Positions 10,877-49,408 of a stretch of DNA of 64,000 nt are shown here, piece after piece. Below the pieces are notes generated by a model. The model was not told the origin of the DNA. It was given only the letters and a program-made list of their open reading frames with translations, and made no database searches. The position numbers and the translations under genes were made by a program. Positions within the stretch are counted from its first letter, which is position 1, and each line of letters begins with the position of its first letter. Origin of the DNA: Candidatus Omnitrophota bacterium (GTDB taxonomy: Bacteria > Omnitrophota > Gorgyraeia > Zapsychrales > Zapsychraceae); NCBI GenBank assembly GCA_015233405.1, contig JADFXT010000007.1, forward strand, positions 64,390-128,389, read 5' to 3'.

Positions 10877-10912
10877 GAGAAATCATTATGGTTGACGATG
10901 AAAAAAGCCTTT

Positions 10913-11170
10913 TAATCCCAAATTTTGCATTACAATCAATAACGCGACGATTAGGCGCGTATAAAAAGATGCAATGCAAAATTTGCCTTCGGCCTGGGAT
11001 TACCCAGCTCTCCTCAAAACAATGGAAGAAGCTGGTGTATGCCGATTCTTTTGAATATTCTTAAAGGAAATCGGCGAACCCCGCACGTCTCGGCGAGGCC
11101 GAGACATTGCGGCCCTTTGGGCGTATTTTGCTTTGGCCTGCCAGGCGGCAGGCTAATGCAAAATCCGGGT
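10913..11170. mobile_element. MITE-like structured element with ~20-nt imperfect terminal inverted repeats
   Basis: Left end is 'AATCCCAAATTTTGCATTAC'. Right end 'CTAATGCAAAATCCGGGTT' is its near reverse complement. There is an internal third 'ATGCAAAAT' copy. Several GC-rich hairpins sit inside (GTCTCGGC-gag-GCCGAGAC; GCCTGCC-aggc-GGCAGGC). Confidence 0.35.
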
Positions 11171-11294
11171 TAAAGTGGAACCATTATAACAGAAAAAGAA
11201 AAAAGCCATGGAAAAAAGAAAGATTCTTCGGCGATGGGAGATTTTAGAAAATAAAAAAGGGAAGATTTTAAAGCATATTTCCTCCAGTTTGTTC

Positions 11295-11323
11295 CTTGAC
11301 CCTCCAGAGGTCTCATGTTATAT
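11295..11323 (+). promoter_or_regulatory. Sigma70-type promoter for tRNA-Pro
   Basis: 'TTGACC' - 17 nt - 'TATATT', about 28 nt upstream of the tRNA 5' end. Confidence 0.5.
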
Positions 11324-11351
11324 TAGTCTACTTTTTAATCGAGATTTTAAT

Positions 11352-11428
11352 CGGGGAGTGGCGCAGCTGGCTAGCGCACGTGCTTTGGGAGCATGGGGTC
11401 GTGGGTTCGAATCCCTCCTCCCCGACCA
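11352..11428 (+). tRNA. tRNA-Pro (anticodon TGG), CCA encoded
   Basis: Manual cloverleaf: CGGGGAG/CTCCCCG acceptor, GCGC D-stem, anticodon loop TTTGGGA, T-loop TTCGAAT (one T:T mismatch in the T-stem). Confidence 0.9.
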
Positions 11429-11469
11429 AGTTAACAAAATGATGTTCCATATTTATTAAGAAAATAGCA

Positions 11470-11542
11470 TTCTGTTGACGGGATAAATCGGCCCCGCACT
11501 TGTTTTTCTAAAAAAAGTAATGGAAACAAGTACAGGTGCCGC
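11470..11542 (+). repeat. Partial 5' duplicate of the tRNA-Arg leader and acceptor strand, folded as a hairpin
   Basis: 'GGATAAATCGGCCCCGCA' (11481-11498) mirrors the true 'GGTAAATCGGCCCCGTA' (11565-11581). It is followed by ACTTGTTT..AAACAAGT and GGTGCC, which pair back to it. Confidence 0.5.
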
Positions 11543-11572
11543 TTCTTTCTGGAAAAGATTTAGTGGTAAATC

Positions 11573-11646
11573 GGCCCCGTAGCTCAGTTGGATAGAGCAA
11601 CAGCCTTCTAAGCTGTGGGTCGCCCGTTCGACTCGGGCCGGGGTCG
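11573..11646 (+). tRNA. tRNA-Arg (anticodon TCT), CCA not encoded
   Basis: Manual cloverleaf: GGCCCCG/CGGGGTC acceptor, GCTC/GAGC D-stem, ACAGC-CTTCTAA-GCTGT anticodon arm, GCCCG-TTCGACT-CGGGC T-arm. Confidence 0.9.
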
Positions 11647-11714
11647 TTTTTTCGTTTTCTCGCCCTGAGATGGGGTAGTGCTCAGGGTCGTTTTTTCGTT
11701 TTCTCGCCCTGAGA
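11641..11714 (+). terminator. Intrinsic terminator embedded in a perfect 30-nt direct repeat
   Basis: 'GGGTCGTTTTTTCGTTTTCTCGCCCTGAGA' occurs at 11641-11670 and 11685-11714. The CCCTGAG/CTCAGGG hairpin is followed by a T-run. The first copy includes the last 6 nt of tRNA-Arg. Confidence 0.6.
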
Positions 11715-11759
11715 AAGCGATTATTCTTTGGGTTTCTAACCATTGTCATTTAAAGAGTC

Positions 11760-12746
11760 ATGAAGCTATTTCAAAAAATTCTCCTTGGTATTTTTGTTTT
11801 TTTTCTCTTTCTTTTTCTTGCAGTCTCTGTTTATCTTCGCTTTCAAGGCCAGCAAGTCATTATCAAAACGCTTACCCAATCTTTAAAACAAGATGTCAAA
11901 ATTCGCAGCCTCGCCTATAGTTTTCCTTTTGGGCTTAAGGCTAGCGATGTGTCGGTGGGTGATTTTTTTAATTGTCAGACGATCAAAGCTCAAATAAATT
12001 TGCTGGCACCTTTTAACGGACAAATTCATCTCGCCTATGTTTTTATAGACCGGCCTTTTCTGCGGGTTGATAAACAACAAGTGTCTATTCGTTCAATGAA
12101 AAATTTCTCGACGCAAACGGCAACAGAAGCAAATCCGGTCCAGCGCATTGAAAAGCAAAAAGAACCTTCATCCGTACAAAATTTTTTTCCGGCTGTTTCT
12201 ATCAATTGGCTTTTTATCCGGCAGGGAACCGTGGAGTATAGGGATAAGGACGACTCGCGATCGACGCTGTGGCTTGATAAAGTGGATTTAAGGGTTAAAT
12301 CGTTTGAGCTACCTTTGGAGTCCAACAAGGTTCCCTATACGTTTTCCGCAATGTTTCTAAAGGAGAAATCATTTTTTTCGAATACCAAGATTGAGAGCGC
12401 GGGATGGATCGATGTCGTGAAGAAAGACATGGACAGCAAGGTCAAGGTGATCGATTCAACGGGAAAGATTGGGCTCAATGCGCATTTGGTTTCCAAAGAT
12501 GATCAGATGAATGTTCAAGGCGATGTGTCGGCGGGGAAATTTTTGTTAGGATTGCAAAATGCAGGACAGGGGCCGACATCTTCTTTAGGAGGGTTGGTTG
12601 CCGGGGCGTTATCTAATTTTGGCGTCGAGGTTTTAGCAAAATTTTCTTTTGCGACCCGGATGGATGATTTTGAGATCCGAAATATCAATTTAGAAGGAAC
12701 GATCAAAACGCAAGAATCCGGCGTCAAATCGCTCCAAAAGAAATGA
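11760..12746 (+). CDS. Membrane-anchored hypothetical protein, AsmA/DUF748-like N-terminus
   Basis: N-terminal TM, then 'VIIKTLTQSLKQDVKIRSLAYSFPFGLKASDV', similar in pattern to the N-terminus of the 1105-aa protein. No other recognisable motif. Confidence 0.3.
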   Translation: MKLFQKILLGIFVFFLFLFLAVSVYLRFQGQQVIIKTLTQSLKQDVKIRSLAYSFPFGLKASDVSVGDFFNCQTIKAQINLLAPFNGQIHLAYVFIDRPFLRVDKQQVSIRSMKNFSTQTATEANPVQRIEKQKEPSSVQNFFPAVSINWLFIRQGTVEYRDKDDSRSTLWLDKVDLRVKSFELPLESNKVPYTFSAMFLKEKSFFSNTKIESAGWIDVVKKDMDSKVKVIDSTGKIGLNAHLVSKDDQMNVQGDVSAGKFLLGLQNAGQGPTSSLGGLVAGALSNFGVEVLAKFSFATRMDDFEIRNINLEGTIKTQESGVKSLQKK

Positions 12747-12837
12747 TTGTCGAAATGCGGTTTTATGATAAAATACGTTCCACTTGAAATTTGGTAATTT
12801 GATTTTTGGGCGATTCTGATGCTTTGGTCTTGACGGT

Positions 12838-13095
12838 CTCTGGAAAACATTTTAGTGGTAACATGGTGGGTGTGCTTAGAAACAAAAGCAGCACTACCTA
12901 CCATTTCTTTCTAGGAAATATTAAGTGGTAACATGGTGGGTGCCCATGACTTCTCTGGGAAAGGCTTCAAAGGAAGTCAGGACAACCGCACCATTTTTTT
13001 CTGGAAAAGATTTAGTGGTAACATGGTGGGTGTCCTTAAGGGCAAAAGCAGGACTACCAACCAGGTCTTTCTGGAAAATATTTTAGTGGTAACAT
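12838..13095 (+). repeat. Array of three promoter-box plus tRNA-His-5'-strand units, each forming its own hairpin
   Basis: The identical 19-mer 'AGTGGTAACATGGTGGGTG' occurs at 12854, 12924, 13014 and 13085; the fourth copy runs into the real tRNA. Hairpins at 12865-12902, 12935-12992 and 13025-13062. Confidence 0.8.
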
Positions 13096-13170
13096 GGTGG
13101 GTGTAGCTCAGTTGGTTAGAGTACAAGAATGTGGCTCTTGTGGTCGCGGGTTCGAATCCCGTCACCCACC
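13096..13170 (+). tRNA. tRNA-His (anticodon GTG) with genomically encoded G-1
   Basis: G-1 opposite C73. GTGGGTG/CACCCAC acceptor, CAAGA-ATGTGGC-TCTTG anticodon arm, GCGGG-TTCGAAT-CCCGT T-arm. No CCA encoded. Confidence 0.9.
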
Positions 13171-13176
13171 CTTTAT

Positions 13177-13221
13177 AACCCTTTGTAAGGTTTAATAATC
13201 CTTGCAAGGGGTTTTGTTTTT
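13177..13221 (+). terminator. Hairpin plus T-run downstream of tRNA-His
   Basis: AACCCTTTGTAAGG - TTTAATAAT - CCTTGCAAGGGGTT, followed by TTTTGTTTTT. Confidence 0.6.
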
Positions 13222-13222
13222 A

Positions 13223-13250
13223 TTGACAAATTTTCGGTTCATGTTATATT
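13223..13250 (+). promoter_or_regulatory. Promoter of brnT/brnA module 1
   Basis: 'TTGACA' - 16 nt - 'TATATT'. The ATG lies only ~12 nt after the -10 (near-leaderless). Confidence 0.55.
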
Positions 13251-13262
13251 TACATTGTACAT

Positions 13263-13553
13263 ATGAATGAAATTCATTTTGAATGGGATAAGCTGAAGGC
13301 GGCGGCCAATAAAAGGAAGCATGGTGTTTCTTTTGAAGAGGCGCAGACTGTCTTTTATGATGACAATGCCGTTCAATTTGATGACCCGGACCATTCAAAG
13401 AGCGAGGATAGATTTATTATGGTGGGCATGAGTTATAAATTACGGGTGCTGGTGGTTTCTCATTGTGAGAGGCATGAAGATGTTATTAGGATTATTTCAG
13501 CCAGAAAAGCTATCCGTCATGAGACGAAATATTATACGGAGGGGAAAATATGA
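13263..13553 (+). CDS. brnT: BrnT-family (DUF497) type II toxin, copy 1
   Basis: 'FEWDKLKAAANKRKHGVSFEEAQTVF', 'HSKSEDRF' and 'IRIISARKA' are BrnT hallmarks. Confidence 0.8.
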   Translation: MNEIHFEWDKLKAAANKRKHGVSFEEAQTVFYDDNAVQFDDPDHSKSEDRFIMVGMSYKLRVLVVSHCERHEDVIRIISARKAIRHETKYYTEGKI

Positions 13554-13765
13554 GAGCAGAATATGATTTTTCTAAAATGAAGGGACGGCGTAATCCTTAT
13601 GCGTCACGCTTAAAAAAACCGGTGACCATTCGTTTGGGTTCGGATGTTGTGGCGTATTTTAAGAATATGGCTTCCGAGATGGATGTCCCGTATCAGAAAC
13701 TGATGAACATGTATCTAAGGGATTGCGTTTCGTCTCATCGTAAAGTCGAATGGGTTTCGCACTAA
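13550..13765 (+). CDS. brnA: BrnA-family antitoxin (RHH/CopG-like), copy 1
   Basis: 'YDFSKMKGRRNPYASRLKKPVTIRL..DVVAYFK..A.EMDVPYQKLMNMYLRD'. 4-nt ATGA overlap with brnT. Confidence 0.8.
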   Translation: MRAEYDFSKMKGRRNPYASRLKKPVTIRLGSDVVAYFKNMASEMDVPYQKLMNMYLRDCVSSHRKVEWVSH

Positions 13766-13779
13766 ACAGGGTTCTCACG

Positions 13780-13851
13780 TTTTTCTGGAGAAAATTCATA
13801 GGTAACGGGACCCCGCCAAAGGCGGTGGTAACCTTGCTCCACCCAACGACC
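13780..13851 (+). repeat. tRNA-type upstream box, then GC hairpin, then an 18-mer resembling the tRNA-His 3' strand
   Basis: 'TTTTTCTGGAGAAAATTCATAGGTAAC' is related to the box upstream of tRNA-Arg and tRNA-His. CCGCC-aaa-GGCGG hairpin. 'TTGCTCCACCCAACGACC' (13834-13851) is identical to 15481-15498. Confidence 0.6.
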
Positions 13852-13910
13852 TTTAATTAGGACGTGCTTTTAGGATAATGCAACCAGTAGAACCTCGTTT
13901 TTTTGCTTAT

Positions 13911-14714
13911 ATGAAAAAAATATTTTTGCTTTTCTTGGTTTTTATTTTTTTGTCCGAATGCTCTTATGCGGACATTGCACTGGTGCATTCTAGCTATAAG
14001 CATACAATGAGCATTACTTCAGGATCGCCTGTCACTAGTTACTTGACGACGATAGCTACCATAGACAGCGGGTCAAATCAGATGCTGGTCGTCGGGGTTT
14101 CGGCGGAAATCGCGAGGACAACTGGTACCATTACTTTCGGGACTGTTTCTTATAATGGAACTCTGATGACGCAGGTAACCACTGCATCTGTGGTCGCAAC
14201 GGGAAACGGAAGTGTTGACGGAGTGGCCCTTTACTATTTGCAAAATCCCGCTGTGGGGACAAATAATTATGTGGCCTCGACTGTTTCGGCCAGTACCGGT
14301 ATTGGAACAATTAATTCGCACAAGATCCTTGCCATAAGTTTGAGTGGGGTAAACCAAGCAGCCCCTGAAGCCAATAATTCAGCGACCAACAATAGCGCGT
14401 CTGCAAGCGTGAATTTGACCACTTTAACAAATAATGCGTGGGTCCTGGATATTGTATGCGAAGATTTATCCACCGCCACATGGACTGCCGGTGGGGGGCA
14501 GTCACCCGTGCTTGATATTGGGGGCAATCAGATGAGGGCGGCCATGTCGTATAAGCCTGTGGCTACAGCCGGAGCCACGACGATGTCTTGGGCTATATCG
14601 GGTTCTTATGGATGGGCCATTATTGCCGCTTCTTTTGCTCCTTTTGTTGCGGCGTCAAACGCATCGGTCTCCGGAGCCACATCAATGACGGGAATAACGT
14701 CGATAAGTTTTTAA
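13911..14714 (+). CDS. Hypothetical secreted protein, Thr/Ser/Ala/Gly-rich
   Basis: Signal peptide 'MKKIFLLFLVFIFLSECSYA'. No recognisable motif. The sequence looks more GC-rich than its flanks. An alternative upstream start at 13878 lacks a signal peptide. Confidence 0.5.
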   Translation: MKKIFLLFLVFIFLSECSYADIALVHSSYKHTMSITSGSPVTSYLTTIATIDSGSNQMLVVGVSAEIARTTGTITFGTVSYNGTLMTQVTTASVVATGNGSVDGVALYYLQNPAVGTNNYVASTVSASTGIGTINSHKILAISLSGVNQAAPEANNSATNNSASASVNLTTLTNNAWVLDIVCEDLSTATWTAGGGQSPVLDIGGNQMRAAMSYKPVATAGATTMSWAISGSYGWAIIAASFAPFVAASNASVSGATSMTGITSISF

Positions 14715-14845: not shown

Positions 14846-14875
14846 TTGACAGATGTATATCTTGGTGATATACAT
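14846..14875 (+). promoter_or_regulatory. Promoter and palindromic operator of brnT/brnA module 2
   Basis: 'TTGACA' - 17 nt - 'TATACA'. A perfect inverted repeat ATGTATATC-ttggt-GATATACAT (14853-14875) overlaps the spacer and -10. Confidence 0.6.
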
Positions 14876-14882
14876 ATATCGT

Positions 14883-15197
14883 ATGGATATTCAGCAGATC
14901 CTCAATAGTTGCGAAGGCTTTCAATGGGACGGTGGTAATAGCCTCAAAAGTTGGCTTAAGCATCATGTTTCACAAGGAGAGGCAGAGCAGATATTCTTTA
15001 ATGACCCGCTTTTATTAGTCATGGATCCGAGGCATTCGCAGGATGAGGCGAGGTATTGGGCGTTAGGGTATACGGATGACGACAGACAGCTGTTCATTGT
15101 TTTTACGATACGTAAGAATTTGATTCGAGTTATTTCAGCTAGGAATATGAATAGGAAAGAAAAGGTGGATTATGAAAAATTTAAAACCAATTCCTAA
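14883..15197 (+). CDS. brnT: BrnT-family (DUF497) type II toxin, copy 2
   Basis: 'FQWDGGNSLKSWLKHHVSQGEAEQIF', 'HSQDEARY' and 'IRVISARNM'. The start was moved to the ATG at 14883 because the listed start at 14853 lies inside the promoter. Confidence 0.75.
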   Translation: MDIQQILNSCEGFQWDGGNSLKSWLKHHVSQGEAEQIFFNDPLLLVMDPRHSQDEARYWALGYTDDDRQLFIVFTIRKNLIRVISARNMNRKEKVDYEKFKTNS

Positions 15198-31674: not shown

Positions 31675-31700
31675 GTAGAAAAAAATCAGAAAAAAACGGA
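31675..31700 (+). promoter_or_regulatory. A-rich upstream box, copy 1
   Basis: 'GTAGAAAAAAATCAGAAAAAAACGGA'. A -10-like TATTAT lies 57 nt downstream of the box start. Confidence 0.5.
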
Positions 31701-31766
31701 TTTTATCCCATGATGTTTTTTTATTAAGGATTATTATAAATATAAGGCAAGAGGAGATGGATTCTT

Positions 31767-33872
31767 ATGCGAAATTTTTTTAATATCCAATATGATTATA
31801 TTTATTTTTTTTATGGGTTGGCTTTCTTCTTTCTAGCCATCATCTGTTTTGGGATCAGAAAAGATCGACGGCATGGATTGCCTTGGTTTTTGTTGGGGAT
31901 GTTTGGATTGATCCACGGTATTAATGAGTGGCTGGAGATTTTTCCGGTTATTTTTGGTAGTAGCGATGCTTTTTCCATTGGGCATTTAATAATTTTGGGC
32001 TTGTCGTATTTGTTCCTGTTTGAGTTTGCCAGGTCAGGATTTTCACGCGGCGGGAAGACAATCATAGGGGTGTGGATCTATCCCATAATCTTGGTCTTAG
32101 TTCTTTTAGGAGGTAGATATGGGTTTAGCGAGTTTAATATCGCAAGCAGATATTTTATTGGATTTCCGGCGGGGATTTTTGCCTCTTTGGTCATCTTTCG
32201 TGGGGCTCAATTGGAACCAGCGGGCCGCAAATCACTTTTGACCTTAAGCATTGCGATGGCCTTATATTCTATTCTAGCTGGCTTAATTGTTCCTAAGGCT
32301 GATTTTATTTGGGCTAAATGGCTCAATGCGGATTCTTTTTATCAAGTGGTTGGCATGCCGGTGCAATTGGTCCGGGGAGTTCTGGCGATGATCTGTGCCA
32401 TGGCGTTATGGTTTTTTCCGCCGGCGCTTCCTAACGTAAAATTGTTGCCGAAAAGATATACGATTCCTTTTAAGCCATCAAAATGGATGATCTTGTTGAC
32501 TTTGACCATCTTGGTCGGGATGGGATGGGCGTTTACGAATTATTTTGATTATTACGCCGGGGTTCAACTGATCAAAAATATTCAAATTAATACAAACTCT
32601 CCCATTAATCAATTGATGACGAAATTGACCAGGCTTGAAAGAATTGCCATTGTTATCAGCAAGGCTTCTTCGGTCAAAACAACTCTCACGACTCGCACAG
32701 ATGAAGATTTAGAGAAGGCTGCGGCCATCATTGAGCATTATCAGCGGGAATTGGAGAATTCGGGTTGTTTGTTGTTGGACAATCAAGGGTTGGTGGTCAT
32801 TTCCGTTGGAGATGTTTTTCTGGAGAATAAAAAGAATCAGTCCTTTGCTTCCGCTGTTTATTTTAAACAAGCCATGTCCGGAAAGACCGGATATCATTTT
32901 GCCTTGGGGCCGACATATAATGAGAGGATTTATTCTGTCAGTTTTCCCGTCAAAGACCACGATGGAAAAATCCTGGGGGTTGTGGTCTTAAAAGAAAAAC
33001 TTTCAGCGGCGCGCATCATCAAATACAGGTTCGTAGGGATTATTATCACGATGTTTGTCTGTTTATTGACCATGGTATTCTTTGTTGTCTTAAAGAATAG
33101 AGAAAACCAGATCCTGTTTATGAAAGAAGTGAACGAGCAACTCAACTCCGTAGACAGGATGAAGAACGATTTTTTGGCTGTCGTTTCGCATGAATTAAAG
33201 ACCCCGCTAACGTCGATCAACAATGCTGCAACGATTCTCTTAAGGGGCTGGCCGGATAAACGCGTTACCCAGGAAAGAGAAAAAGAGCTCCTCGAGATTA
33301 TTTTAAATAACACGCACCGGCAGACGCGCATGGTCAAAGACCTTTTGGATGTGTCAAAGATAGAGGCAGGGGCGATGTCTATGGAAATAAAACTGACCGA
33401 TCTCATTGTGCTCATCCGGGAGACGGTTAATACTTTTCAGCCTCTCGCTGAAAAAAAAGATATCAAGTTGCTTTTATCTGTGGAGAAAGAATCGCTGTTG
33501 ATTTCCATTGATCCCGACCACACACACCGCATCTTAGCTAACCTCATCCACAATGCAATTAAATTTACCCCCGATCACGGCGAGGTCATGGTGAAGGTGA
33601 AAGAAATCCGTCGAAACGTTAAGATCAGCGTGTCGGATACGGGAATCGGCATCATCGAAGAAGATATTAAAAATATCTTTAACAAGTTTTACAGGTCTTC
33701 CGATGCCCGCGTTCGGCAGGAAGGCGGTAGCGGTCTGGGGCTGTTGATTACTAAGGGGTTGGTTGAGGCTCAAGGCGGCAAGATCTGGATAGAATCTAAA
33801 TTAAATAAAGGCAGTTCGTTCAACTTCACGCTCCCTCTGGGGCCGGAAGACAAAGGGGATTCTCATGCATAA
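31767..33872 (+). CDS. Sensor histidine kinase (multi-TM N-terminal block, Cache-like domain, HisKA, HATPase_c)
   Basis: 'FLAVVSHELKTPLTSI' is the H-box. 'LIHNAIKFTP', 'DTGIGI' and 'GSGLGLLITKGL' are present. Confidence 0.8.
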   Translation: MRNFFNIQYDYIYFFYGLAFFFLAIICFGIRKDRRHGLPWFLLGMFGLIHGINEWLEIFPVIFGSSDAFSIGHLIILGLSYLFLFEFARSGFSRGGKTIIGVWIYPIILVLVLLGGRYGFSEFNIASRYFIGFPAGIFASLVIFRGAQLEPAGRKSLLTLSIAMALYSILAGLIVPKADFIWAKWLNADSFYQVVGMPVQLVRGVLAMICAMALWFFPPALPNVKLLPKRYTIPFKPSKWMILLTLTILVGMGWAFTNYFDYYAGVQLIKNIQINTNSPINQLMTKLTRLERIAIVISKASSVKTTLTTRTDEDLEKAAAIIEHYQRELENSGCLLLDNQGLVVISVGDVFLENKKNQSFASAVYFKQAMSGKTGYHFALGPTYNERIYSVSFPVKDHDGKILGVVVLKEKLSAARIIKYRFVGIIITMFVCLLTMVFFVVLKNRENQILFMKEVNEQLNSVDRMKNDFLAVVSHELKTPLTSINNAATILLRGWPDKRVTQEREKELLEIILNNTHRQTRMVKDLLDVSKIEAGAMSMEIKLTDLIVLIRETVNTFQPLAEKKDIKLLLSVEKESLLISIDPDHTHRILANLIHNAIKFTPDHGEVMVKVKEIRRNVKISVSDTGIGIIEEDIKNIFNKFYRSSDARVRQEGGSGLGLLITKGLVEAQGGKIWIESKLNKGSSFNFTLPLGPEDKGDSHA

Positions 33873-34248
33873 ATTAATATTGATCATCGAAGATGAAGTG
33901 GATATTGCGAAAACCATCCGATATTCCCTCGAAGGCGAAGGGTATGACGTTGTCATCGCCGGCAGAGGCGAAGAAGGATTAGAAAAGGCGAAGCAGCACA
34001 AACCGGATTTGGTTATCTTGGATTTACGGCTTCCAAGATTGCAGGGAGAAGAGGTTTGTAAAGAGATCCGTAAGGATGAACAAATCGCCAAAACGCCGAT
34101 CATTATGTTGACGTCGAAAGATGCCGAAGCAGATAGGATCATTGGAAAGGTCGTCGGAGCCAATGTTTATATGACGAAACCATTTGATCTGGATAAATTA
34201 AGCGCGAAGATCAAAGAGCTTGTGGGTCCGAGCGAGGGTCTTTCTTAG
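33865..34248 (+). CDS. Single-domain response regulator (CheY-like receiver)
   Basis: 'LIIEDEVDI', 'DLVILDLRLP', 'IIMLTSK' and 'YMTKPF'. 8-nt overlap with the upstream kinase. Confidence 0.85.
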   Translation: MHKLILIIEDEVDIAKTIRYSLEGEGYDVVIAGRGEEGLEKAKQHKPDLVILDLRLPRLQGEEVCKEIRKDEQIAKTPIIMLTSKDAEADRIIGKVVGANVYMTKPFDLDKLSAKIKELVGPSEGLS

Positions 34249-37662: not shown

Positions 37663-37688
37663 GTAGAAAAAAGTCAGAGAAAAGTGTC
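37663..37688 (+). promoter_or_regulatory. A-rich upstream box, copy 2
   Basis: 'GTAGAAAAAAGTCAGAGAAAAGTGTC'. TATAAT at 37720, 57 nt from the box start. Confidence 0.5.
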
Positions 37689-37731
37689 ATCAGGCCATTG
37701 CTTATTTTAAAGGAGTTGTTATAATTTTTTT

Positions 37732-38019
37732 AGAAGTAGAAGAGGACATCAAGATTTCTTAATTAGGATTTGTGGGGATCTAGGCTAATGAAGGAATCAG
37801 ATGCGGGGCAAGCAAAAGATTCTTAAGCCCGTGCTTATTAGAGAGCAATATCTGGTTTGATTAGCCTAGAGCCCAAAAATATGGAATTTCCTGTGGGATT
37901 TCCCCTTGCAGAGGAATCTGAATCTCACGGGAAGCAGAAACCGTCTTCTTATCGTATTTCAAGAAGGCGGAGAAAGTCAAAAAGGCTACGATTGGCAACA
38001 CCAATCATAGCCTTTTTTT
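37732..38019 (+). ncRNA. Candidate structured non-coding RNA of unknown class (~290 nt)
   Basis: Preceded by TTGCTT/TATAAT. No ORF of 60 codons or more. Long-range helix TCTAGGCTAAT (37779-)/ATTAGCCTAGA (37863-). 5' AGAAGAGGAC can pair with 3' GTCTTCTTAT. Ends in the terminator GGCTACGATTGG-caaca-CCAATCATAGCC plus T7 (37984-38019). Confidence 0.45.
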
Positions 38020-38020
38020 A

Positions 38021-38046
38021 GTAGAAAAAAATCAAAGAAAAAGGGA
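38021..38046 (+). promoter_or_regulatory. A-rich upstream box, copy 3
   Basis: 'GTAGAAAAAAATCAAAGAAAAAGGGA'. TATAAT at 38078, 57 nt from the box start. Confidence 0.5.
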
Positions 38047-38148
38047 ATTGGGTCAATAAGAAACGGCAGGCATTGGATATAATAATATTAAAAGGTATTA
38101 GATGGTTATAAGACATATTGAAAAGAGTTTTGCAGGAATTTTCTATTT

Positions 38149-38337
38149 ATGATAAACCAGAACGTTTTGATCACCAAAGAAGTCGCGGAATTTTTAAGAG
38201 TCAGCGAAGAATATGTCCGAGAACTCATTCGGGATAAAAAGATCCGTGCCTATAAGGAAGGGCGGCGCGGTGGATACAGGGTTCTTAAAGAAGATGTGGA
38301 TAAATATATTGAGGAAAAACTACACAGTGTTGGATAA
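38149..38337 (+). CDS. Excisionase-family helix-turn-helix DNA-binding protein
   Basis: 62 aa. 'LITKEVAEFLRVSEEYVRELIRDKKIRAYK.GRR..YRVLKEDVDKYI' fits the MerR/Xis-type wHTH pattern. Confidence 0.65.
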   Translation: MINQNVLITKEVAEFLRVSEEYVRELIRDKKIRAYKEGRRGGYRVLKEDVDKYIEEKLHSVG

Positions 38338-38435
38338 GAAAATAGCGCTAAAAGATAAAATGGAGCCAAACAAAATTTTTTATACATATAAAATATTGTT
38401 GATATAATTAACTAAACTAGATTAACTTATTAAAT

Positions 38436-39062
38436 ATGAATCCCGAAAAGAAAACAAAGATAGCCGAGATGTTAGCCCTAGTGGTCAGCTGTGCCGCGAT
38501 GCTGGTCATTATTGGCTGGATATTTAATATTCCGTTCTTAAAAAGTCTTTCCCCCTCCTGGGTCACGATGAAATTCGTTGCAGCGGTTGCTTTCCTTTTA
38601 AGCGGTGTAAGTTTATATTTTATTGTCAGGGCCAAACAGGGCCTCTTTGACCAGGCGCAGGTCATTCTTTTCATTGTTGCGTTAATCCTTGTCCTTTATA
38701 TGGGGCTTTTTTTATTCTCCATCTTGTTTAAGATAGAAACCAACATTGAAGATTTGCTTATTCACGACGCGAATCCAGTAAAGACCGCCGCTCCGGGACA
38801 GCCTTCGTTGTTTACCATTATCAATTTTCTTTTGATAGCGCTGGCGGATATTTTCACGATCCTCAATCCCGAGCGTTTAGCGTCCAAGCTTAGGGTTATC
38901 GGTTTTTTGGTGGGGGCAATCGGAGCCATCGCGGTAATGGGTTATATCCTTAATGTTCCTATTCTTTATTATTATATGCCAGGTTTTAACACCGCCATGG
39001 CGTGCCATACGGCCATTTTATTTGTCTTGTTAGGAGTGGGGCTTTTATGTCTATCCGATTAA
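38436..39062 (+). CDS. Polytopic membrane protein (6-7 TM), possible sensory module for the downstream kinase
   Basis: Hydrophobic throughout. Its end overlaps the start of the kinase gene. Confidence 0.4.
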   Translation: MNPEKKTKIAEMLALVVSCAAMLVIIGWIFNIPFLKSLSPSWVTMKFVAAVAFLLSGVSLYFIVRAKQGLFDQAQVILFIVALILVLYMGLFLFSILFKIETNIEDLLIHDANPVKTAAPGQPSLFTIINFLLIALADIFTILNPERLASKLRVIGFLVGAIGAIAVMGYILNVPILYYYMPGFNTAMACHTAILFVLLGVGLLCLSD

Positions 39063-40918
39063 AATTGACCATCACATTCTTGGCGCTTACTTTGATCCCG
39101 CTCTTATTTGTCAGCGTCATCGCTTTTAATAATTATAAAAACTACCTCGAGGCTGACCATATTGCGGATTTAAGAAATATCCTGATGTTTAAGTCGGATA
39201 AGATCGAAACCTATTTCTCCGGATTAAAGTCTGATATAGAAATCGCCCAAAGTTTTTTTAACATTAAACAAAACCTTCCGATACTTTCTCAATATGCTAA
39301 CGATCCCCACAACACGAAGTTTTTGGAAGCCAAGAAAATGCTCGACGGACAGTTGCAAAACACGCAATCCGTTCTAGGGTTATATGACATCATGTTGGTC
39401 AACGTAGATGGAAAAATTGTCTATGCCAGCAATCCCAAGCATTATCCGAAACATTTCTTGAATTCCCTTCCAGATTTAAAGAACGAGACATTTGAAAGAG
39501 GAAAGAAAGGCGTTTACTTTTCTGATATTTTCTTAGATCCTATCGAAAGCGGCAGGCCGACCATGCTGGTGACGGCTCCGGTTCTTGATTTTCATGGAGA
39601 GCTCGTCGGAGTTGTTGCGTTTTCAGTGGATATGGGGTCCGTCTATCGCTTGATGCAGGATAGGACTTGGTTGGGCAAGACAGGAGAAACCCTGATAGGA
39701 AAAAAAGTCGGGGACCGGGTGATTTATTTAAATCCTTTACGGTATGACACTGAAGCGGTTCTGACAAAACATGTCCATATTGGAGATGTCCTCGGCGGGC
39801 CTATTCAAAAAGCGGTACAAGGGGAAAACGGCGCCGGAGAGCTTATCGATTATCGCGGGAAGAAAGTTGTCGCGGCCTGGCAGTTTATTCCGATGCTGAA
39901 TTGGGGTATTGTGGCGAAGATGGATATTGAGGAAGCCTTTGCCGATATTATAAAATTAGGAAAATTGATCAGCATTATTTTAATTATTGTTTCGGTGTTG
40001 TGCAGCATTGTGGCTTTTGCTATTGCGAAATCTATTTCTGACCCCATCAAAAAATTGTCCAAGGGGGCTGAGGCAATCGGCAGCGGGAATCTGGATTATA
40101 AGGTTGGTATCAGTTCAAAAGATGAACTCGGTCAGCTGTCGAGGACGTTTGACAATATGGCCAGTGATTTAAAAAATATTACCGCTTCACGTGATGAGCT
40201 TAATAAAGAGATCGCTGAACGTAAAGCCGCAGAGGAAGAACTTAAGCGATCGAATGAGAATTTGGAACAATTCGCCTATGTCGCCTCGCACGACCTTCAG
40301 GAGCCGCTAAGGGTCATGGCCAGCTATTCGGAACTTTTGGAAAGGCGTTATAAAAGTAAATTGGACAAGGATGCGGATGAGTTTATAGGCTATATTGTGG
40401 ACGGGGCTAAACGCATGCAGAAGCTCATCAATGACCTTTTGGCATATTCCCGCATCGGACGTGTCAACAAGCCCGTCGAGGATGTCGATTGTAATTCTAT
40501 CTTAGATCGCGTGATCAATAGCCTGCAGCCGGTCATAGAACAAAATCAAGCGGTTATTTCTCATGATAAATTGCCGGTGCTTAAAGGAACTGAGAGCCAC
40601 TATGTCCAATTATTTCAGAATCTTATTGGAAACGCGATAAAATTCCATGGGCCTGAAGCTCCTCGTATTCATATCCGCGCGGTACGACATGGTAAGGAGT
40701 GGCTGTTTTCCGTCAAGGATAACGGCATTGGCATAGACCTGCAATATAAAGACAGGATTTTTCTGATTTTCCAGCGCCTGCACGGTAGAAATGAATATCC
40801 CGGGACAGGCATTGGGCTTTCCATCTGTAAAAAGATTGTAGAAACAGAAGGCGGACGGATTTGGGTAGAGTCCACGCTAGGAAAAGGTTCTATTTTTTAT
40901 TTCACAATCCCTGCTTAA
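39047..40918 (+). CDS. Sensor histidine kinase (Cache-like domain, HAMP, phytochrome-type HisKA, HATPase_c)
   Basis: N-terminal TM 'LTITFLALTLIPLLFV'. 'LSKGAEAIGSGNLDYKV...DELGQLSRTFDNMA' is the HAMP. 'FAYVASHDLQEPLR' is the H-box. 'DNGIGI' and 'GTGIGLSICKKI' are present. The ATG at 39047 is preferred over 39002. Confidence 0.8.
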   Translation: MSIRLKLTITFLALTLIPLLFVSVIAFNNYKNYLEADHIADLRNILMFKSDKIETYFSGLKSDIEIAQSFFNIKQNLPILSQYANDPHNTKFLEAKKMLDGQLQNTQSVLGLYDIMLVNVDGKIVYASNPKHYPKHFLNSLPDLKNETFERGKKGVYFSDIFLDPIESGRPTMLVTAPVLDFHGELVGVVAFSVDMGSVYRLMQDRTWLGKTGETLIGKKVGDRVIYLNPLRYDTEAVLTKHVHIGDVLGGPIQKAVQGENGAGELIDYRGKKVVAAWQFIPMLNWGIVAKMDIEEAFADIIKLGKLISIILIIVSVLCSIVAFAIAKSISDPIKKLSKGAEAIGSGNLDYKVGISSKDELGQLSRTFDNMASDLKNITASRDELNKEIAERKAAEEELKRSNENLEQFAYVASHDLQEPLRVMASYSELLERRYKSKLDKDADEFIGYIVDGAKRMQKLINDLLAYSRIGRVNKPVEDVDCNSILDRVINSLQPVIEQNQAVISHDKLPVLKGTESHYVQLFQNLIGNAIKFHGPEAPRIHIRAVRHGKEWLFSVKDNGIGIDLQYKDRIFLIFQRLHGRNEYPGTGIGLSICKKIVETEGGRIWVESTLGKGSIFYFTIPA

Positions 40919-40927
40919 AGTTTATTG

Positions 40928-40996
40928 TTGTCATCCCCGGCGATCCCTCATTAGCGGGATGGTAAGCGAAGGGCGAACCAAAGCGGGAATGACAGG
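40928..40996. repeat. Palindromic dispersed repeat, locus 6 (degenerate)
   Basis: 'TTGTCATCCCCGGCGATCCC...AGCGGGATGG...AGCGGGAATGACAGG'. Confidence 0.6.
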
Positions 40997-41015
40997 AATG
41001 AGAAAGGAGCAATGA

Positions 41016-41474
41016 ATGACCAATAGTAACGGAAATTGTTTTCAATCGATTGAGATCTTGCTGGTGGAGGACAATCCGGCGGATGTGCGCTTAACCATAG
41101 AGGCCCTTAAAGAGGAGAAGGTCTTTAGCAGCCTGAATGTGGTCAGCGATGGAGTGGAAGCCATGGAATATCTTCGGCAAGAAGGAAAATATTCAAAAGT
41201 ATCAAGGCCGGATTTGATATTGCTCGACCTTAACCTTCCGAAAAAAGATGGTCGGGAAGTCTTAAAAGAAATTAAAGCAGATGAAATATTAAAGACAATT
41301 CCCGTTGTGGTTTTGACGGTATCGAAATCTGAGGAAGATATTTTAAAGACATATAATTTGCATGCAAATTGTTACATTAGTAAGCCCGTCGATTTAAAAC
41401 AGTTTATGAAAGTGGTGAAGTCTATTCGGGAGTTCTGGCTGACCATTGTTAAACTACCACCGAAAGGGAATTAA
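41016..41474 (+). CDS. Response regulator receiver (Rcp1-like, single domain)
   Basis: '[14 protein letters not shown]', '[20 protein letters not shown]', 'IPVVVLTVS' and 'CYISKP'. Confidence 0.85.
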
Positions 41475-41486
41475 GGAGAGTTTTGT

Positions 41487-43061
41487 ATGGAAAAAAATGA
41501 CCTGAATGTCCTTCTTTTGGAAGATAACCCTTGGGATGCGAGGCTTGTGTTTGAAATGTTCAAGGATTGCGACAAATTATCTTCGAGAATGGTGCATGTG
41601 AGCCGTCTAGACGAGGCCTTGAAGATCCAGAAGGAAGAGAAGTTTGATGTTATTCTTATGGACCTTGGGCTTCCAGACAGTCATGAGTTCGAGGGGCTTG
41701 ATGCTATTATCGCCCAGAACCCGAGTATTCCGGTGATCGTTTTAACCGGAAATGATAATGAAAATGTCGGTATTCAGGCTTTGCAAAAACGGGCTGCGGA
41801 TTATCTAGTCAAGGGGAAATTTGATTCCAATCTTTTGGTCCGGACCATCCGATATGCTATTGAACGTAAGAGGGTTGAAGAAAATTTGGCTAACGAGCGG
41901 CATAATCTTCAAATGATTTTTGACGTCGTCAATGTCGGAATGCTTTTGATCGACGAGCATGGAACGGTCGAACGGGTCAATAATGTGATTAGTCGGTGGG
42001 TGGGTAAAGAAGAAATGGCTATGTGCGGGACCCAGCCGGGTAATGTCTTAGGATGTATTCATGCTATTCATAATCCCAAGGGCTGCGGGCATTCTGCTCA
42101 TTGCCAGATATGCCCTATTCGGAAGGCCTTTGAGGATGTCTTACGTTACCAAAAGCCGGTCCATGATGTTGAAGTTGATACCTGCCTTGTGCGGGAAGGA
42201 AAAGAAGTTCATTTATGGATTGATGTCAGTGCGGACCCGCTTATTATCGACGGGAAGAAACATGTTATTCTGGCCATTAACAACATCACGGAGCGGAAAA
42301 AAGCAGAAGAAATCTTAAAACGTGACAAGGAAATTTTTGAAGGGCTTGTCAGCGAGCGAAGCAAAGAATTAATGGAAGCCCACATTCAATTAGCTCAAAA
42401 GAAGCGCCTTTCCGACATAGGAACGTTAGCCGCAACGATTGCTCATGAGCTGCGCAATCCTTTAGCCGCGATTGGATTGGCCACGTATAATATTAAAAGA
42501 AAAGCGGTCGATGCGCCGATAGAAAAGCATATCAAGAATATCGAGAAGAAGGTGGCGGAGAGTGAGCAGATTATTAATAATTTATTGTTTTATTCCCGGA
42601 TTAAACCGCCGCATATAGAGACTGCTAATCTTTATCATATTATTGAAGAGTGCGTCGACGTTATAGAGAAACAATCCGAAAAGAAAGTCCTTTTTCGTCG
42701 AAAATATGATTCCATAAAAGATGTTGTGATGAGCATTGATCCGCTTCAAATGAAGGAAGTCTTTCAAAATATTTTAAATAACGCCTATGATGCCGTTTCT
42801 GACGGAAAAGGAACAATAGAAATCAGCGCGGAAGAAGAATCGGGGTTCATAAAACTTTACTTTAAAGATAATGGGACAGGAATCGACAAGGAGCACTTTG
42901 AAAAAGTTTTTGACCCTTTCTTTACGACCAAAGCCAAGGGGACTGGCCTGGGCCTTTCTGTTTGTCAGCAGATCGTCAATCTTCACGGCGGAGCAATCCA
43001 CATTGAAAGCGAGCTGGGCCAAGGGACTACGTTTATGATCGCTTTGCCGAAAATAGGCTAA
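41487..43061 (+). CDS. Hybrid receiver, Cys/His-rich PAS-like domain, histidine kinase
   Basis: '[10 protein letters not shown]', '[11 protein letters not shown]', and the cluster '[31 protein letters not shown]'. '[11 protein letters not shown]' is the H-box. The C-terminal half is closely paralogous to that of the kinase at 25805. Confidence 0.8.
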
Positions 43062-46532: not shown

Positions 46533-46558
46533 GTAGAAAAAAGATAGAAAAAAGTGGA
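46533..46558 (+). promoter_or_regulatory. A-rich upstream box, copy 4
   Basis: 'GTAGAAAAAAGATAGAAAAAAGTGGA'. TATAAT at 46591, 58 nt from the box start. Confidence 0.5.
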
Positions 46559-46617
46559 ATGGCTTCCTATTTATTAGTTTACTTATTATTTATAATAAGT
46601 TAAAGGATGTGATTTCT

Positions 46618-47967
46618 ATGGATGAGGTCAGAATCAATCTGGAAGAAAATCTCTTAGACCGATTAAAGGGTAAGATTACGCTTACCCAATCGGTTAAAAC
46701 CAAAGAGAAGATTATTTTAAATGCTTTTCTAGAATTTTGTAATGTGCTAGAGAACCAAAAATGTGAGGAGAGGGAAAAATATCTTAAAGATGAGAATAGC
46801 AAAACAGCTTTTGCGACGGGATTTCAAAGTTATGGAATCATCGACTCTTTATTGGATGACCCGAATGTGGAAGATATTATCATTAACGGTGCCGAGCCGA
46901 TCTATGTTCATCATTCGCTGGAAGGATTAAAAGAGACGGGTAAACAGTTTGCGAACGCGCGTGAATTAGACCTTTTAATCAAGAAGATATTAACCTTTGC
47001 CGGCAAGGAGAATTTAAAAAAGATCAACAATATCGATTTGCCCGGGATGCGCGGCCGGGTGAATATTATTTATTCTCCTTTAGGCCCGGAGTTGACGATC
47101 ACTAAAATGAAGTCGAGGCCGTTGAGCATTATTGATCTGATTGAGAAAGGCACTTTAAATACGGAGATCGCAGCGCATTTGTGGCTTTATATCGAAGGAA
47201 TGGGTGTGAAGCTCGCGAACATTCTGATTTCCGGCGGGCCGGGAAGCGGAAAGACCACGCTCTTAAATGCCTTGCTCAGTTTTGTTCCCAATGCGCAGCA
47301 TATTGTTGTGATTGAAGATTCTCTGGAGCTTGTGACCAATTGGATCGGCAATGTTTCCCGACTTGAAAGCGACGAGGATTTGTCTTTGGCCGACTTGGTC
47401 AAAAATAGTCTCCGGATGAGGCCGGACCGCATTATCGTCGGAGAAGTACGAGGCAGTGAAGCGGAAGACATGATCACGGCCATGAACATCGGCAAATATT
47501 GTATGGCGACCATTCATGCCAGTACGGTACGGGAAACGATCTTTCGCCTACAAAGTAATCCGATGAACATCCCGGAGACACTCATCAACCTCGTCGATGT
47601 TTTTATCGTGATGCGTAAGATGGTCGTTGGACATCAGATTTTCCGTGTGGTGGACGAAATTGCGGAATCTGCGGGTTTGGAACAAAAGGTTGTCTTGATT
47701 TCACCTTTATGGAAATACGATTCCGCAGCACAGGTCATTAATCATCTTAGCCCGACGACGGTTTACAGGGACCGGTTGAGCCGTGCCAGCGGACTAAACG
47801 GCAAGAACATTTTTGATGAAATCAATCAACGAAAAGATTTTTTAGAAATGTTAAGACAAGCAGATGTTCATTTGATCCAAGACGTTTCGCATTATTGCGA
47901 ATCCTATATTCAAGACCCGGAAATCGCTTTGCGCCAAGTAAGCACGCTTAAGGAAAAGTCCTCATGA
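46618..47967 (+). CDS. Type II/IV secretion-family ATPase (CpaF/TadA/FlaI-like)
   Basis: 'VEDIIINGAEPIYV', Walker A 'ISGGPGSGKTTLLNALL', 'VIEDSLEL' and 'LRMRPDRIIVGEVRGSEA'. An alternative GTG start at 46609 is possible. Confidence 0.8.
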   Translation: MDEVRINLEENLLDRLKGKITLTQSVKTKEKIILNAFLEFCNVLENQKCEEREKYLKDENSKTAFATGFQSYGIIDSLLDDPNVEDIIINGAEPIYVHHSLEGLKETGKQFANARELDLLIKKILTFAGKENLKKINNIDLPGMRGRVNIIYSPLGPELTITKMKSRPLSIIDLIEKGTLNTEIAAHLWLYIEGMGVKLANILISGGPGSGKTTLLNALLSFVPNAQHIVVIEDSLELVTNWIGNVSRLESDEDLSLADLVKNSLRMRPDRIIVGEVRGSEAEDMITAMNIGKYCMATIHASTVRETIFRLQSNPMNIPETLINLVDVFIVMRKMVVGHQIFRVVDEIAESAGLEQKVVLISPLWKYDSAAQVINHLSPTTVYRDRLSRASGLNGKNIFDEINQRKDFLEMLRQADVHLIQDVSHYCESYIQDPEIALRQVSTLKEKSS

Positions 47968-48845
47968 AATCCTATCCTGTCTTTGAAGATCTTCGATTCG
48001 AAGACCTTGCCATTTTTAATAAAGAATTTTTGGATAACCCGCCGAGCATTTCTGAATATACCTTTACCAATCTTTACGCCTGGAGAGAACCTTATAAATT
48101 GAAAGCTTGCCTTTTGGGACGTTTCATTATTTTGCGTTCTGAAGCAGGGCCGCAGATGCGGTTTTTTGATCCCATTGGCACAGGAGATAAAAAAAGTGTA
48201 ATGGAAGAGATTTTTCAAAAGGATAACGGAATTTTTGTCCGTCTTCCGGAGGAGACAATCGCTTTATTTTCCAACGATCCACGTTTTCAAGTCGGGCTTG
48301 ATCGGGATAATTCTGATTATTTGTATAAGGCCGAAGAGCTCATTACGCTTCAGGGGGCAAAATACGACGGGAAAAGGAACAGAATTAAAAAATTTCGGTC
48401 AACTTGTGGTTATGAATATATCCCCATGACAGCGATGAATGCCCAAGAATGCATGGCGTATGAAGACCAGTGGTGCATCCTTAAAAATTGTGATGGCGTT
48501 GAAGGGTTGAGCCATGAACGGCAAGCCATACGTGAAATGACCAAGCATTTTTTGGACTTTGAGCTCGTCGGAGGAGCCATCAAAATAGAAGGGATGATCC
48601 GCGCGGTTGCCTTGGCCCAAAGATTGAATCCTGAGACGCTCGTCATGCATGTGTTAAAAGCGGATGCGACTTTAAGCGGATTATATCAGACCATGTTGCA
48701 TGAATTCTTATCGCGAGAAGCCGGGAATTATCTTTATGTTAATTTTGAACAGGACCTTGGCGAAGCAGGACTGCGAAAATCCAAACAATCGTATCACCCT
48801 CTTAAGATGATTCAAAAATATACCCTTATCCCCACACTCGTTTAA
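47964..48845 (+). CDS. DUF2156-family protein (MprF C-terminal, aminoacyl-tRNA-transferase-like GNAT fold)
   Basis: 'EYTFTNLYAWRE', 'DRDNSDYLYKAEELITLQGAKYDGKRNRIKKF', 'VMHVLKAD...GLYQ' and 'YVNFEQDLGEAGLRKSKQSYHP'. 4-nt ATGA overlap with the ATPase. Confidence 0.65.
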   Translation: MKSYPVFEDLRFEDLAIFNKEFLDNPPSISEYTFTNLYAWREPYKLKACLLGRFIILRSEAGPQMRFFDPIGTGDKKSVMEEIFQKDNGIFVRLPEETIALFSNDPRFQVGLDRDNSDYLYKAEELITLQGAKYDGKRNRIKKFRSTCGYEYIPMTAMNAQECMAYEDQWCILKNCDGVEGLSHERQAIREMTKHFLDFELVGGAIKIEGMIRAVALAQRLNPETLVMHVLKADATLSGLYQTMLHEFLSREAGNYLYVNFEQDLGEAGLRKSKQSYHPLKMIQKYTLIPTLV

Positions 48846-48871: not shown

Positions 48872-48897
48872 GTAGATAAAGGTCAATAAAAAGCGGA
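48872..48897 (+). promoter_or_regulatory. A-rich upstream box, copy 5 (degenerate)
   Basis: 'GTAGATAAAGGTCAATAAAAAGCGGA'. A -10-like TATGCT at 48929, 57 nt from the box start. Confidence 0.4.
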
Positions 48898-48991
48898 ATC
48901 CGCTCATTCACAGACTTTTTAGAAAGAGTATGCTAAGTATTAAAGACTTTATAAGAATATAAGATTTTATTATTAGAGAAAAGAGGAAAAA

Positions 48992-49408
48992 ATGGCTAAT
49001 AAGAAGGTGATGATCGTCGATGACGACAAAGAATTTTTAGAAGAGCTTGATGAGGCTTTGCGGCTAAGCGATTTTGACAGCATTGTGATTAATAATCCTA
49101 ATTTAGCTTTGAAGAAAGCTGTGTTGGAAAAGCCAGATGCCATTTTACTTGATTTAAGAATGCCCGGGAAAAGTGGGTTTTTGCTTGCGGATGAGATAAA
49201 GAATTCTTCTCAATTGACTGGCACTCCGATTATTGCGATGAGCGGGTATTTTAAAAAAGATGCGAGTGATTTTTTTAGTGTTTATGGGATCGTTGATTAT
49301 ATTTCTAAACCGTTTGACCCATTGGAAGTTGTGAGCAAGATAGAAAAAGTCTTGGAAAAAACAATGGGCGCCAAAACAAAAAAGTTGTTGGATGAACATA
49401 AAAAGTAG
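48992..49408 (+). CDS. Single-domain response regulator (CheY-like)
   Basis: 'VMIVDDDKEFLEEL', 'PDAILLDLRMPGKSG', 'IIAMSG' and 'YISKPF'. Confidence 0.8.
   Translation: MANKKVMIVDDDKEFLEELDEALRLSDFDSIVINNPNLALKKAVLEKPDAILLDLRMPGKSGFLLADEIKNSSQLTGTPIIAMSGYFKKDASDFFSVYGIVDYISKPFDPLEVVSKIEKVLEKTMGAKTKKLLDEHKK

Follow-up and report, generated by a model that had tools for sequence, protein, structure and literature searches.

Omnitrophota are abundant bacteria that are almost entirely uncultured, and to our knowledge nothing is known about their transcriptional regulation. The DNA analyzed here, a stretch of 64 kb that we refer to as the window, bears directly on this subject. An earlier reading made from the sequence alone had proposed that an A-rich box, repeated five times upstream of -10-like hexamers, is the signature of a regulon. 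Is this box a regulatory site and, if so, what kind of site is it, which genes does it control and which protein recognizes it?

The origin of the window is consistent with this setting. Its HTH_17 protein, its CheY-like protein and another receiver are identical to MBF0522566.1, MBF0522575.1 and MBF0522569.1, which NCBI assigns to a Candidatus Omnitrophica/Omnitrophota MAG. Since a secretin and YhdP/DUF748-type envelope proteins are encoded in the window, the host is a diderm.

A consensus search allowing up to three mismatches on both strands of the 64-kb window recovered exactly the five positions that had been claimed and no others (Table 1). Only 0.02 matches are expected from 100 dinucleotide shuffles, which bears out the earlier judgment that five copies are unlikely by chance. 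A 28-nt PWM made from the five sites separates them just as clearly: the boxes score 36-39 bits, compared with 12.3 bits for the next-best match on either strand of the 64 kb and a shuffle maximum of 16.4. All five boxes are on the plus strand, intergenic and pointing at the next gene. The -10-like hexamers that had been placed 57-58 nt after the box start are all present in gapless register, at +57, +57, +57, +58 and +57 for boxes 1 to 5 in order. The -35 regions had all been called poor. This holds for three of the five, but those of boxes 2 and 5 are reasonable. At the boxes themselves Rfam 15 returned no gathering-level match.

Table 1. Features of the 64-kb window and elements of the promoter module. 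Window positions count from its first letter; offsets count from the start of the box.
Feature	Position	Strand	Details
tRNA gene	11352-11425		
tRNA gene	11573-11646		
tRNA gene	13097-13170		
BrnT-family type II toxin gene	14853-15197		PF04365; amid metabolic genes
Box 1	31675-31702	+	GTAGAAAAAAATCAGAAAAAAACGGATT; poor -35 region; -10-like TATTAT 31732-31737
dCache-HisKA-HATPase kinase	31767-33872	+	Box 1 target
REC protein	33865-34248	+	Follows the box 1 kinase
Box 2	37663-37690	+	GTAGAAAAAAGTCAGAGAAAAGTGTCAT; -35-like TTGCTT 37698-37703; -10 TATAAT 37720-37725; predicted TSS ~37732
Candidate ncRNA	37733-38019	+	~285 nt; driven by box 2, terminated, structured
Intrinsic terminator	37983-38019	+	GGCTACGATTGG-caaca-CCAATCATAGCC, then T7
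Box 3	38021-38048	+	GTAGAAAAAAATCAAAGAAAAAGGGAAT; -10 TATAAT 38078-38083
Box 3 targets	38149-43061	+	HTH_17, 208-aa protein, dCache-HAMP kinase, REC protein, REC-HisKA hybrid kinase
HTH_17 (excisionase-family) DNA-binding protein	38149-38337	+	62 aa; MBF0522566.1; regulon member
Box 4	46533-46560	+	GTAGAAAAAAGATAGAAAAAAGTGGAAT; -10 TATAAT 46591-46596
T2SSE-family ATPase	46609-47967	+	Box 4 target
LPG_synthase_C/DUF2156 protein	47964-48845	+	Box 4 target
Box 5	48872-48899	+	GTAGATAAAGGTCAATAAAAAGCGGAAT; -35 TTCACA 48907-48912; -10 TATGCT 48929-48934
Stand-alone CheY-like receiver	48992-49408	+	MBF0522575.1; behind box 5
c-di-GMP-I riboswitch	59989-60069	+	RF01051; 60.9 bits against a gathering score of 35; just past a nitroreductase gene
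GAAT	offset +24 to +27		Box end; conserved outside the search pattern
aggc.ATttaca	offset +29 to +40		Linker and -35 (TTtACA at +35); conserved outside the search pattern
TAtAAT-like hexamer	offset +57/58		-10; 34 of 52 sites among the matches listed; conserved outside the search pattern
Consensus unit GTAGAAAAAA	offset 0		
Consensus unit GTCAatAAAAA	offset 10		
Consensus unit GnGGAAtcag	offset 21		
Consensus unit gCcATttaCa	offset 31		

The transcription units that the sequence-only reading had listed behind the boxes match ours in all five cases. They include sensor kinases, receivers, a secretion-type ATPase and a candidate non-coding RNA. Behind box 5, the CheY-like gene is followed by genes for a 127-aa protein, a peroxiredoxin-PCD fusion, an LDH/MDH-like protein and an RnfD-like protein. 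Further along the window, the ORF list holds no complete plus-strand ORF of at least 110 aa between the c-di-GMP-I riboswitch and the window end; the riboswitch may precede a long gene that runs beyond the window. Its presence fits the c-di-GMP enzymes (HD-GYP, GGDEF) found in the box regulon at other loci.

To look beyond the window, one representative genome per species was scanned with a degenerate pattern covering all five sites, giving at least 116 loci. At least 19 of these are labelled Omnitrophota, far above the share of this phylum among species. Among the matches listed, most of those from outside Omnitrophota are plainly random A-rich DNA, and the full architecture is found in a few MAG contigs labelled Planctomycetes, Auribacterota, Schekmanbacteria, Deltaproteobacteria and Spirochaetota. 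With a stricter pattern, 25 loci were recovered from metagenome contigs, and every one of them has this architecture. Once duplicates were removed, the two scans together left at least 52 unique sites on unrelated contigs.

The 52 sites among the matches listed have a common layout: GTAGAAAAAAGTCA(A/G)(A/T)AAAAAGnGGAAT, then aGGCnATTtACA as the -35, N17 and TAtAAT. Conservation extends to three elements that the search pattern did not specify, namely the end of the box, the linker running into the -35, and the -10 (Table 1). The best -35 match (TTtACA-like) is at offset 35 in 30 of the 52 unique sites among the matches listed. Information content falls to about 0 bits in the 25 nt upstream of the box and in the spacer between -35 and -10 (same 52 sites, among the matches listed). 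As judged from this conservation, the selected unit is a promoter module of about 70 bp that comprises the box, the linker, the -35, the 17-bp spacer and the -10, the box occupying about -70 to -43 in promoters of the sigma-70 type. The upstream element at about -45 to -70 that had been proposed for such promoters is borne out by these offsets. The box keeps both distance and helical phase relative to the sigma-70-type -35 and -10 in most of the 52 sites among the matches listed.

These data bear on the simplest alternative, that the box is either an accidental A-tract or what is left of a repeat or mobile element, without any regulatory role. The box is A-rich, and random A-rich DNA does make up most of the degenerate-pattern matches outside Omnitrophota among those listed. 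Against this, five boxes are observed in the window where shuffles predict almost none, and a -10-like hexamer at +56 to +59 follows 18 of 20 Omnitrophota sites and 24 of 26 metagenome sites but only 18 of 94 other pattern matches (among the matches listed), so that the scan beyond the window speaks against the random A-tract reading. Because the sequence between the elements, like that upstream of the box, is free to vary, the module is not a copied repeat or mobile element. In the loci examined the box is always intergenic, co-oriented with the next gene and of fixed geometry. Shuffles, PWM, conservation and -10 geometry together leave the chance or remnant reading effectively refuted, and we assign it almost no probability.

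Nothing relevant came out of full-text searches of the literature, whether for the motif sequence or for promoters and regulators of Omnitrophota, and NCBIfam holds no equivalog for the regulon proteins. On the sequence evidence, the 28-bp site is a previously undescribed cis-regulatory signature that marks a regulon throughout the phylum in uncultured Omnitrophota.

Could the box itself be a promoter for an alternative sigma factor? The consensus of Bacillus sigma-H is RNAGGAWWW-N11-12-RNNGAAT, and by eye the box offers a match, GTAGAAAAA-N12-GnGGAAT, in which GTAGAAAAA would be the -35 and GnGGAAT the -10, the TATAAT being incidental or part of a second promoter. The spacing fits, three of the window's five sites have GGAAT exactly, and other members of the family commonly have it too. 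However, the key GG of the sigma-H AGGA reads GA in the box (AGAA), and the stretch that would serve as spacer, with its GTCA and A-tract, is conserved to the same degree as the supposed -35 and -10, a pattern not typical of sigma promoters. Moreover a canonical -35/N17/-10 follows at a fixed distance in most of the 52 sites among the matches listed, and sigma-H is a factor of Firmicutes while the host belongs to Omnitrophota. We consider a sigma-H-like promoter very improbable. A divergent promoter on the reverse strand, suggested by TTGACT in the reverse complement, was rejected for want of a conserved -10 upstream of the box. The resemblance to an IHF site (WATCAANNNNTTR) did not fit on inspection.

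What do the promoters control? The first downstream ORF of each site gives 46 proteins among the matches listed. A receiver domain is present in 19 of these 46 (12 stand-alone CheY-like, four OmpR-type and three REC-AraC, among the matches listed), in agreement with the regulon signature proposed from the window. Other first genes encode HD-GYP and GGDEF-HD-GYP proteins, sensor kinases, a HAMP-array sensor, a di-haem cytochrome c peroxidase, a flavodoxin-like reductase, a dienelactone hydrolase, MscS and BON proteins. None of the 46 first genes among the matches listed has a ribosomal or translation-related domain.

An assumption-free clustering of 776 ORFs from 51 box-bearing loci (among the matches listed) leads to a similar picture. 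Stand-alone CheY-like receivers, including that of the window, are the commonest family directly behind the box and occur at 19 of the 51 loci, REC-AraC response regulators at 10 and superoxide reductases (desulfoferrodoxin/neelaredoxin) at 6, all among the matches listed. For example, two loci (L144 and L145) have the order box, CheY-like gene, desulfoferrodoxin gene and then ferritin/rubrerythrin or Fer4/POR genes. As far as gene content can tell, the boxes tie together signalling and oxidative-stress defence genes in Omnitrophota. The box is more than 90 % identical before CheY-like orthologues that share only 35-52 % protein identity, which is strong evidence of purifying selection on the DNA site itself.

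Two loci add a separate observation. A small Met-rich secreted protein (about 130-140 aa) is encoded behind the box in L014 (about 4100-4520), from an Omnitrophota MAG, and in L025 (minus strand, box at 4565), from an Auribacterota-labelled MAG. The core common to both is ...ATNDGGVVV..GNK..KYDK.L.L.KE..., and the protein, whose gene in L014 lies 5' of that for a CusR-like regulator, may be a metal-binding periplasmic protein.

The gene content also allows us to weigh a factor-independent reading, in which the box is UP-like: its phased A-tracts would give strong promoters by bending the DNA, by binding the alpha C-terminal domains of RNA polymerase, or by both. The classical UP element, as at rrnB P1, is A/T-rich and lies at -40 to -60, with the consensus NNAAAWWTWTTTTNNNAAANNN and no requirement for specific G/C blocks. 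The box resembles it in having two A-tracts one helical turn apart at a fixed distance upstream of a sigma-70-type -35, and its position partly overlaps the classical UP region. It nevertheless extends from about -70 to -43, and its most invariant positions include blocks that are not A/T (GTAG, GTCA, GnGGAA) and have no counterpart in the UP consensus. A diverged box in L142, GTGGAAAAAAGTCgtcatgtgGGAGAAT, which is followed by ATTCACA-N17-TATTAT and a YflT stress gene, keeps the GTAG, GTCA and GGAA blocks and loses the second A-tract. The targets are signalling and stress genes and not the rRNA, tRNA or ribosomal-protein genes of housekeeping promoters: translation-related first genes are absent from the 46 among the matches listed, and the PWM scan and Rfam annotation of the window place no box at its three tRNA genes. 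The bias toward receiver genes argues for a specific regulator over a generic UP element, and we find the factor-independent reading distinctly unlikely. Upstream of the first tRNA gene, A-rich stretches at 11195 and 11237 reach a sub-threshold PWM score of about 9 bits, within the shuffle range; they lack the GTAG and GTCA blocks and are generic upstream A-rich DNA, not boxes.

One of the five window promoters appears to make an RNA that is not translated. No credible ORF is present from the predicted TSS behind box 2 up to box 3, and the transcript would end in an intrinsic terminator whose near-perfect hairpin lies directly before box 3. The predicted RNA folds with an MFE of -97.7 kcal/mol compared with -71.9 kcal/mol for shuffles (z = -5.2). 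The absence of an ORF, the terminator and the folding all support the candidate non-coding RNA that had been proposed at this place. Rfam 15 gave only a sub-threshold match over this RNA (E = 0.76), and BLAST against all fetched loci found no homologue. Elsewhere, the 500 nt or so that follow the boxes at L121 1171 / L124 3293, in L125 (minus strand, 1455) and at L002 6282 contain no ORF of at least 45 aa, and the products of these boxes may be further ncRNAs or very small proteins.

Identifying the regulon leads to the question of its regulator. REC-AraC is the sole DNA-binding family that recurs near boxes across diverse loci (776 ORFs, 51 loci, among the matches listed). Ten loci, L002, L003, L007, L071, L103, L122, L131, L139, L144 and L145, encode an orthologue (50-60 % identity) no more than a few kb from a box, and in L090 the C-terminal end of a REC-AraC protein is encoded near a box. 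The arrangements vary: the box is directly upstream of the REC-AraC gene in L003, L071 and L139, precedes an operon containing it in L144 and L145, and begins 11-27 nt after the end of the gene in L090 and L122. The family is large and its members are closely similar, with more than 120 clusters at 62-77 % identity, and all of the sources that are named are Omnitrophica. In the reverse direction, starting from REC-AraC homologues on four long contigs, three strong boxes were found on each of two of the four. Of the other REC-AraC contigs, L142 carries the diverged box described above and L143 has no detectable box within 16.7 kb. In L143, the region 5' of the REC-AraC gene, at 7160-8000, contains a duplicated segment of about 330 nt, with a tRNA-like sequence ending the second copy; an integration or rearrangement may have left this scar in place of the original promoter. 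The 64-kb window has no REC-AraC gene despite its five boxes. Judged by association, REC-AraC is probably the best candidate for the binder. Any member of the regulon would also be found next to boxes, and co-localization is thus no proof of REC-AraC binding.

If the box is a transcription-factor site, its binder could still be another protein: HTH_17 (excisionase/BldC-like) bound head-to-tail on the phased repeats, the CusR-like OmpR-family regulator, or a regulator encoded away from the boxes. The gene directly behind a box encodes an HTH_17 protein in the window and at two other loci, L132 (68 % identity) and L146 (73 %); in L018 an HTH_17-HD-GYP fusion takes this place. The window operon has HTH_17 in the place held by REC-AraC in the syntenic operons of L144 and L071. 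The L144 operon (8001-14228) reads REC-AraC, dCache-HAMP kinase, REC and hybrid kinase, the window operon has the same trio behind HTH_17 and the 208-aa protein, and L071 (1091-2485) has a homologue of the 208-aa protein behind REC-AraC. This synteny suggests that the lead regulator was swapped within a conserved phosphorelay operon.

For HTH_17, the evidence turns when the search starts from the protein. Three of the four homologues fetched in this way have no box and lie in recombinase or mobile-element contexts. Whether boxed or not, all six HTH_17 promoters (window 38089-38100, L132, L146, L147, L148 and L149) carry GTATTA(G/A)AT just after the -10, which is probably the protein's own autoregulatory operator. 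The box is in only three of these six promoters, whereas the site of a BldC-like regulator should be common to the family. A PDB sequence search with HTH_17 gave nothing useful. The box-less contexts and the separate motif weaken HTH_17 as binder, and the 62-aa HTH protein, which the sequence-only reading had put forward for this role, is probably a target instead.

The second of these candidates, the OmpR-type regulator, is encoded directly behind a box in L052, L136, L137, L141 and L014, and a 10-11-bp repeat period would suit tandem binding by winged-helix proteins. It is confined to near-identical loci of essentially one lineage, and its score (271 bits, cutoff 279) points to a heavy-metal regulator of the CusR/CopR type, which recognizes palindromic copper boxes. 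We set it aside as binder on both grounds, the CusR-like character and the single lineage. Taken together, a binder other than REC-AraC strikes us as rather unlikely, although it is the alternative to which we give most weight.

The reading that we prefer, and hold to be probable, is that the module is the composite operator of a transcription activator, fused in fixed phase to a sigma-70-type promoter and most likely bound by the phylum-wide REC-AraC (YesN-type) protein. The box would form the upstream part of this operator, followed by an aGGCnA linker, the -35 TTtACA, the 17-bp spacer and the -10 TAtAAT. It can be read as helically phased units GTAGAA (0), GTCArw (10) and GnGGAA (21) with A-tracts between them, and a possible fourth unit GGCaAT (30) would abut the -35. 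Compared with itself column by column, the consensus shows similarity peaks at shifts of 10, 11 and 21 bp; the 21-bp repeat and the fourth half-site are weak signals, the fourth unit being weakly conserved. A multimeric regulator lying on one face of the DNA could contact RNA polymerase through sigma region 4 and/or the alpha-CTD, and this contact would switch on promoters that in the window are mostly weak in their -35. Each AraC-type domain reads two adjacent major grooves, and a dimer therefore needs four half-sites; the two double-HTH domains of a REC-AraC dimer induced by phosphorylation would fit them. The regulon would then constitute a signalling and stress network of Omnitrophota, with a CheY-like receiver, sensor kinases, c-di-GMP enzymes, superoxide reductase, peroxiredoxin/peroxidase, small regulators and at least one ncRNA.

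Three features lead us to infer that the site serves to activate and not to repress: it lies upstream of the -35, its phasing is strict, and three of the window's five promoters have a poor -35. The other two window -35 regions are fair and the family consensus TTtACA is moderately good, so the promoters need not strictly depend on an activator. The earlier proposal of an upstream element, placed where class I activators or UP elements act, is supported with refinements. A generic UP element is disfavoured. Since conservation is unbroken from the box through the linker (+29 to +34) into the -35, the site probably extends that far, and it may be of a class-II-like kind that overlaps the -35 instead of strictly class I.

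A broader reading is that the module represents a promoter class at the level of the phylum, serving the general and oxidative stress response of Omnitrophota and neighbouring candidate phyla. Here a near-invariant upstream element on housekeeping-type promoters would take the place of an alternative sigma factor. Its reader would be a regulator with a receiver domain or a factor associated with RNA polymerase, standing last in a phosphorelay of several kinases to which the ubiquitous CheY-like protein also belongs. The same 28 bp do occur in MAGs labelled Planctomycetes, Auribacterota, Schekmanbacteria and Deltaproteobacteria. We regard this broader reading as unlikely and retain the composite operator of an activator as the working model.

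The 28-bp signature is more conserved than the proteins it would control, which allows a regulon spanning the phylum to be reconstructed from metagenomes directly. Its members serve two-component and c-di-GMP signalling and the defence against superoxide and peroxide, and they include at least one candidate small RNA. The analysis also provides concrete candidates, the REC-AraC regulator and a CheY-like partner, and a working definition of the Omnitrophota housekeeping promoter, TTtACA-N17-TAtAAT.

How does the box compare with known systems? Among stress regulons (sigma-B, EcfG and the PerR/OxyR type), the likeness is that stress-defence genes are united with signalling proteins under one cis signature; the stress genes in question are those for superoxide reductase, peroxiredoxin, cytochrome c peroxidase, ferritin/rubrerythrin, YflT, BON and MscS. 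Unlike those systems, the box is neither the -35/-10 of an alternative sigma factor nor a repressor operator over the core promoter, but an upstream element on a housekeeping-type promoter. With UP elements of the rrnB P1 type it shares A-richness, a place upstream of the -35 and dependence on position; it differs in reaching -70, in its invariant G/C-containing blocks and in serving signalling and stress genes instead of translation genes.

Another comparison is with the tandem repeats of OmpR/PhoB regulators (the pho box, and CpxR GTAAA-N5-GTAAA). They have hexamer-like units with a 10-11-bp period and A/T-rich spacers and lie upstream of or adjoining the -35, and the box likewise targets two-component genes, with likely autoregulation. 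In contrast to their two units the box has three to four, and the only OmpR-type protein encoded beside boxes is the CusR-like one of a single lineage.

Regulators of the AraC/XylS type recognize repeats in tandem, of which the proximal one overlaps the -35. Their sites (AraC I1-I2 at araBAD, XylS at Pm, and the marboxes of MarA/SoxS/Rob) are, like the box, asymmetric and direct-repeat-like, with blocks about one turn apart and A/T-rich DNA between them. The box is similarly co-oriented with the promoter in fixed phase and reaches or overlaps the -35, and an AraC-family protein is encoded beside many of the boxes. AraC/XylS sites have tandem repeats of about 17-21 bp, each with two blocks one turn apart; the box has the self-similarity shifts given above and the units GTAGAA/GTCArw/GnGGAA/GGCaAT, of which the fourth is weakly conserved. 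The differences are that the box sequence is unrelated to the marbox or to XylS and AraC boxes, and that the candidate REC-AraC has a receiver domain instead of a ligand-binding domain. The box matches none of the described motif families tested. In its mode of action it would resemble the class I/II activator sites used by AraC/XylS- or OmpR/PhoB-type regulators.
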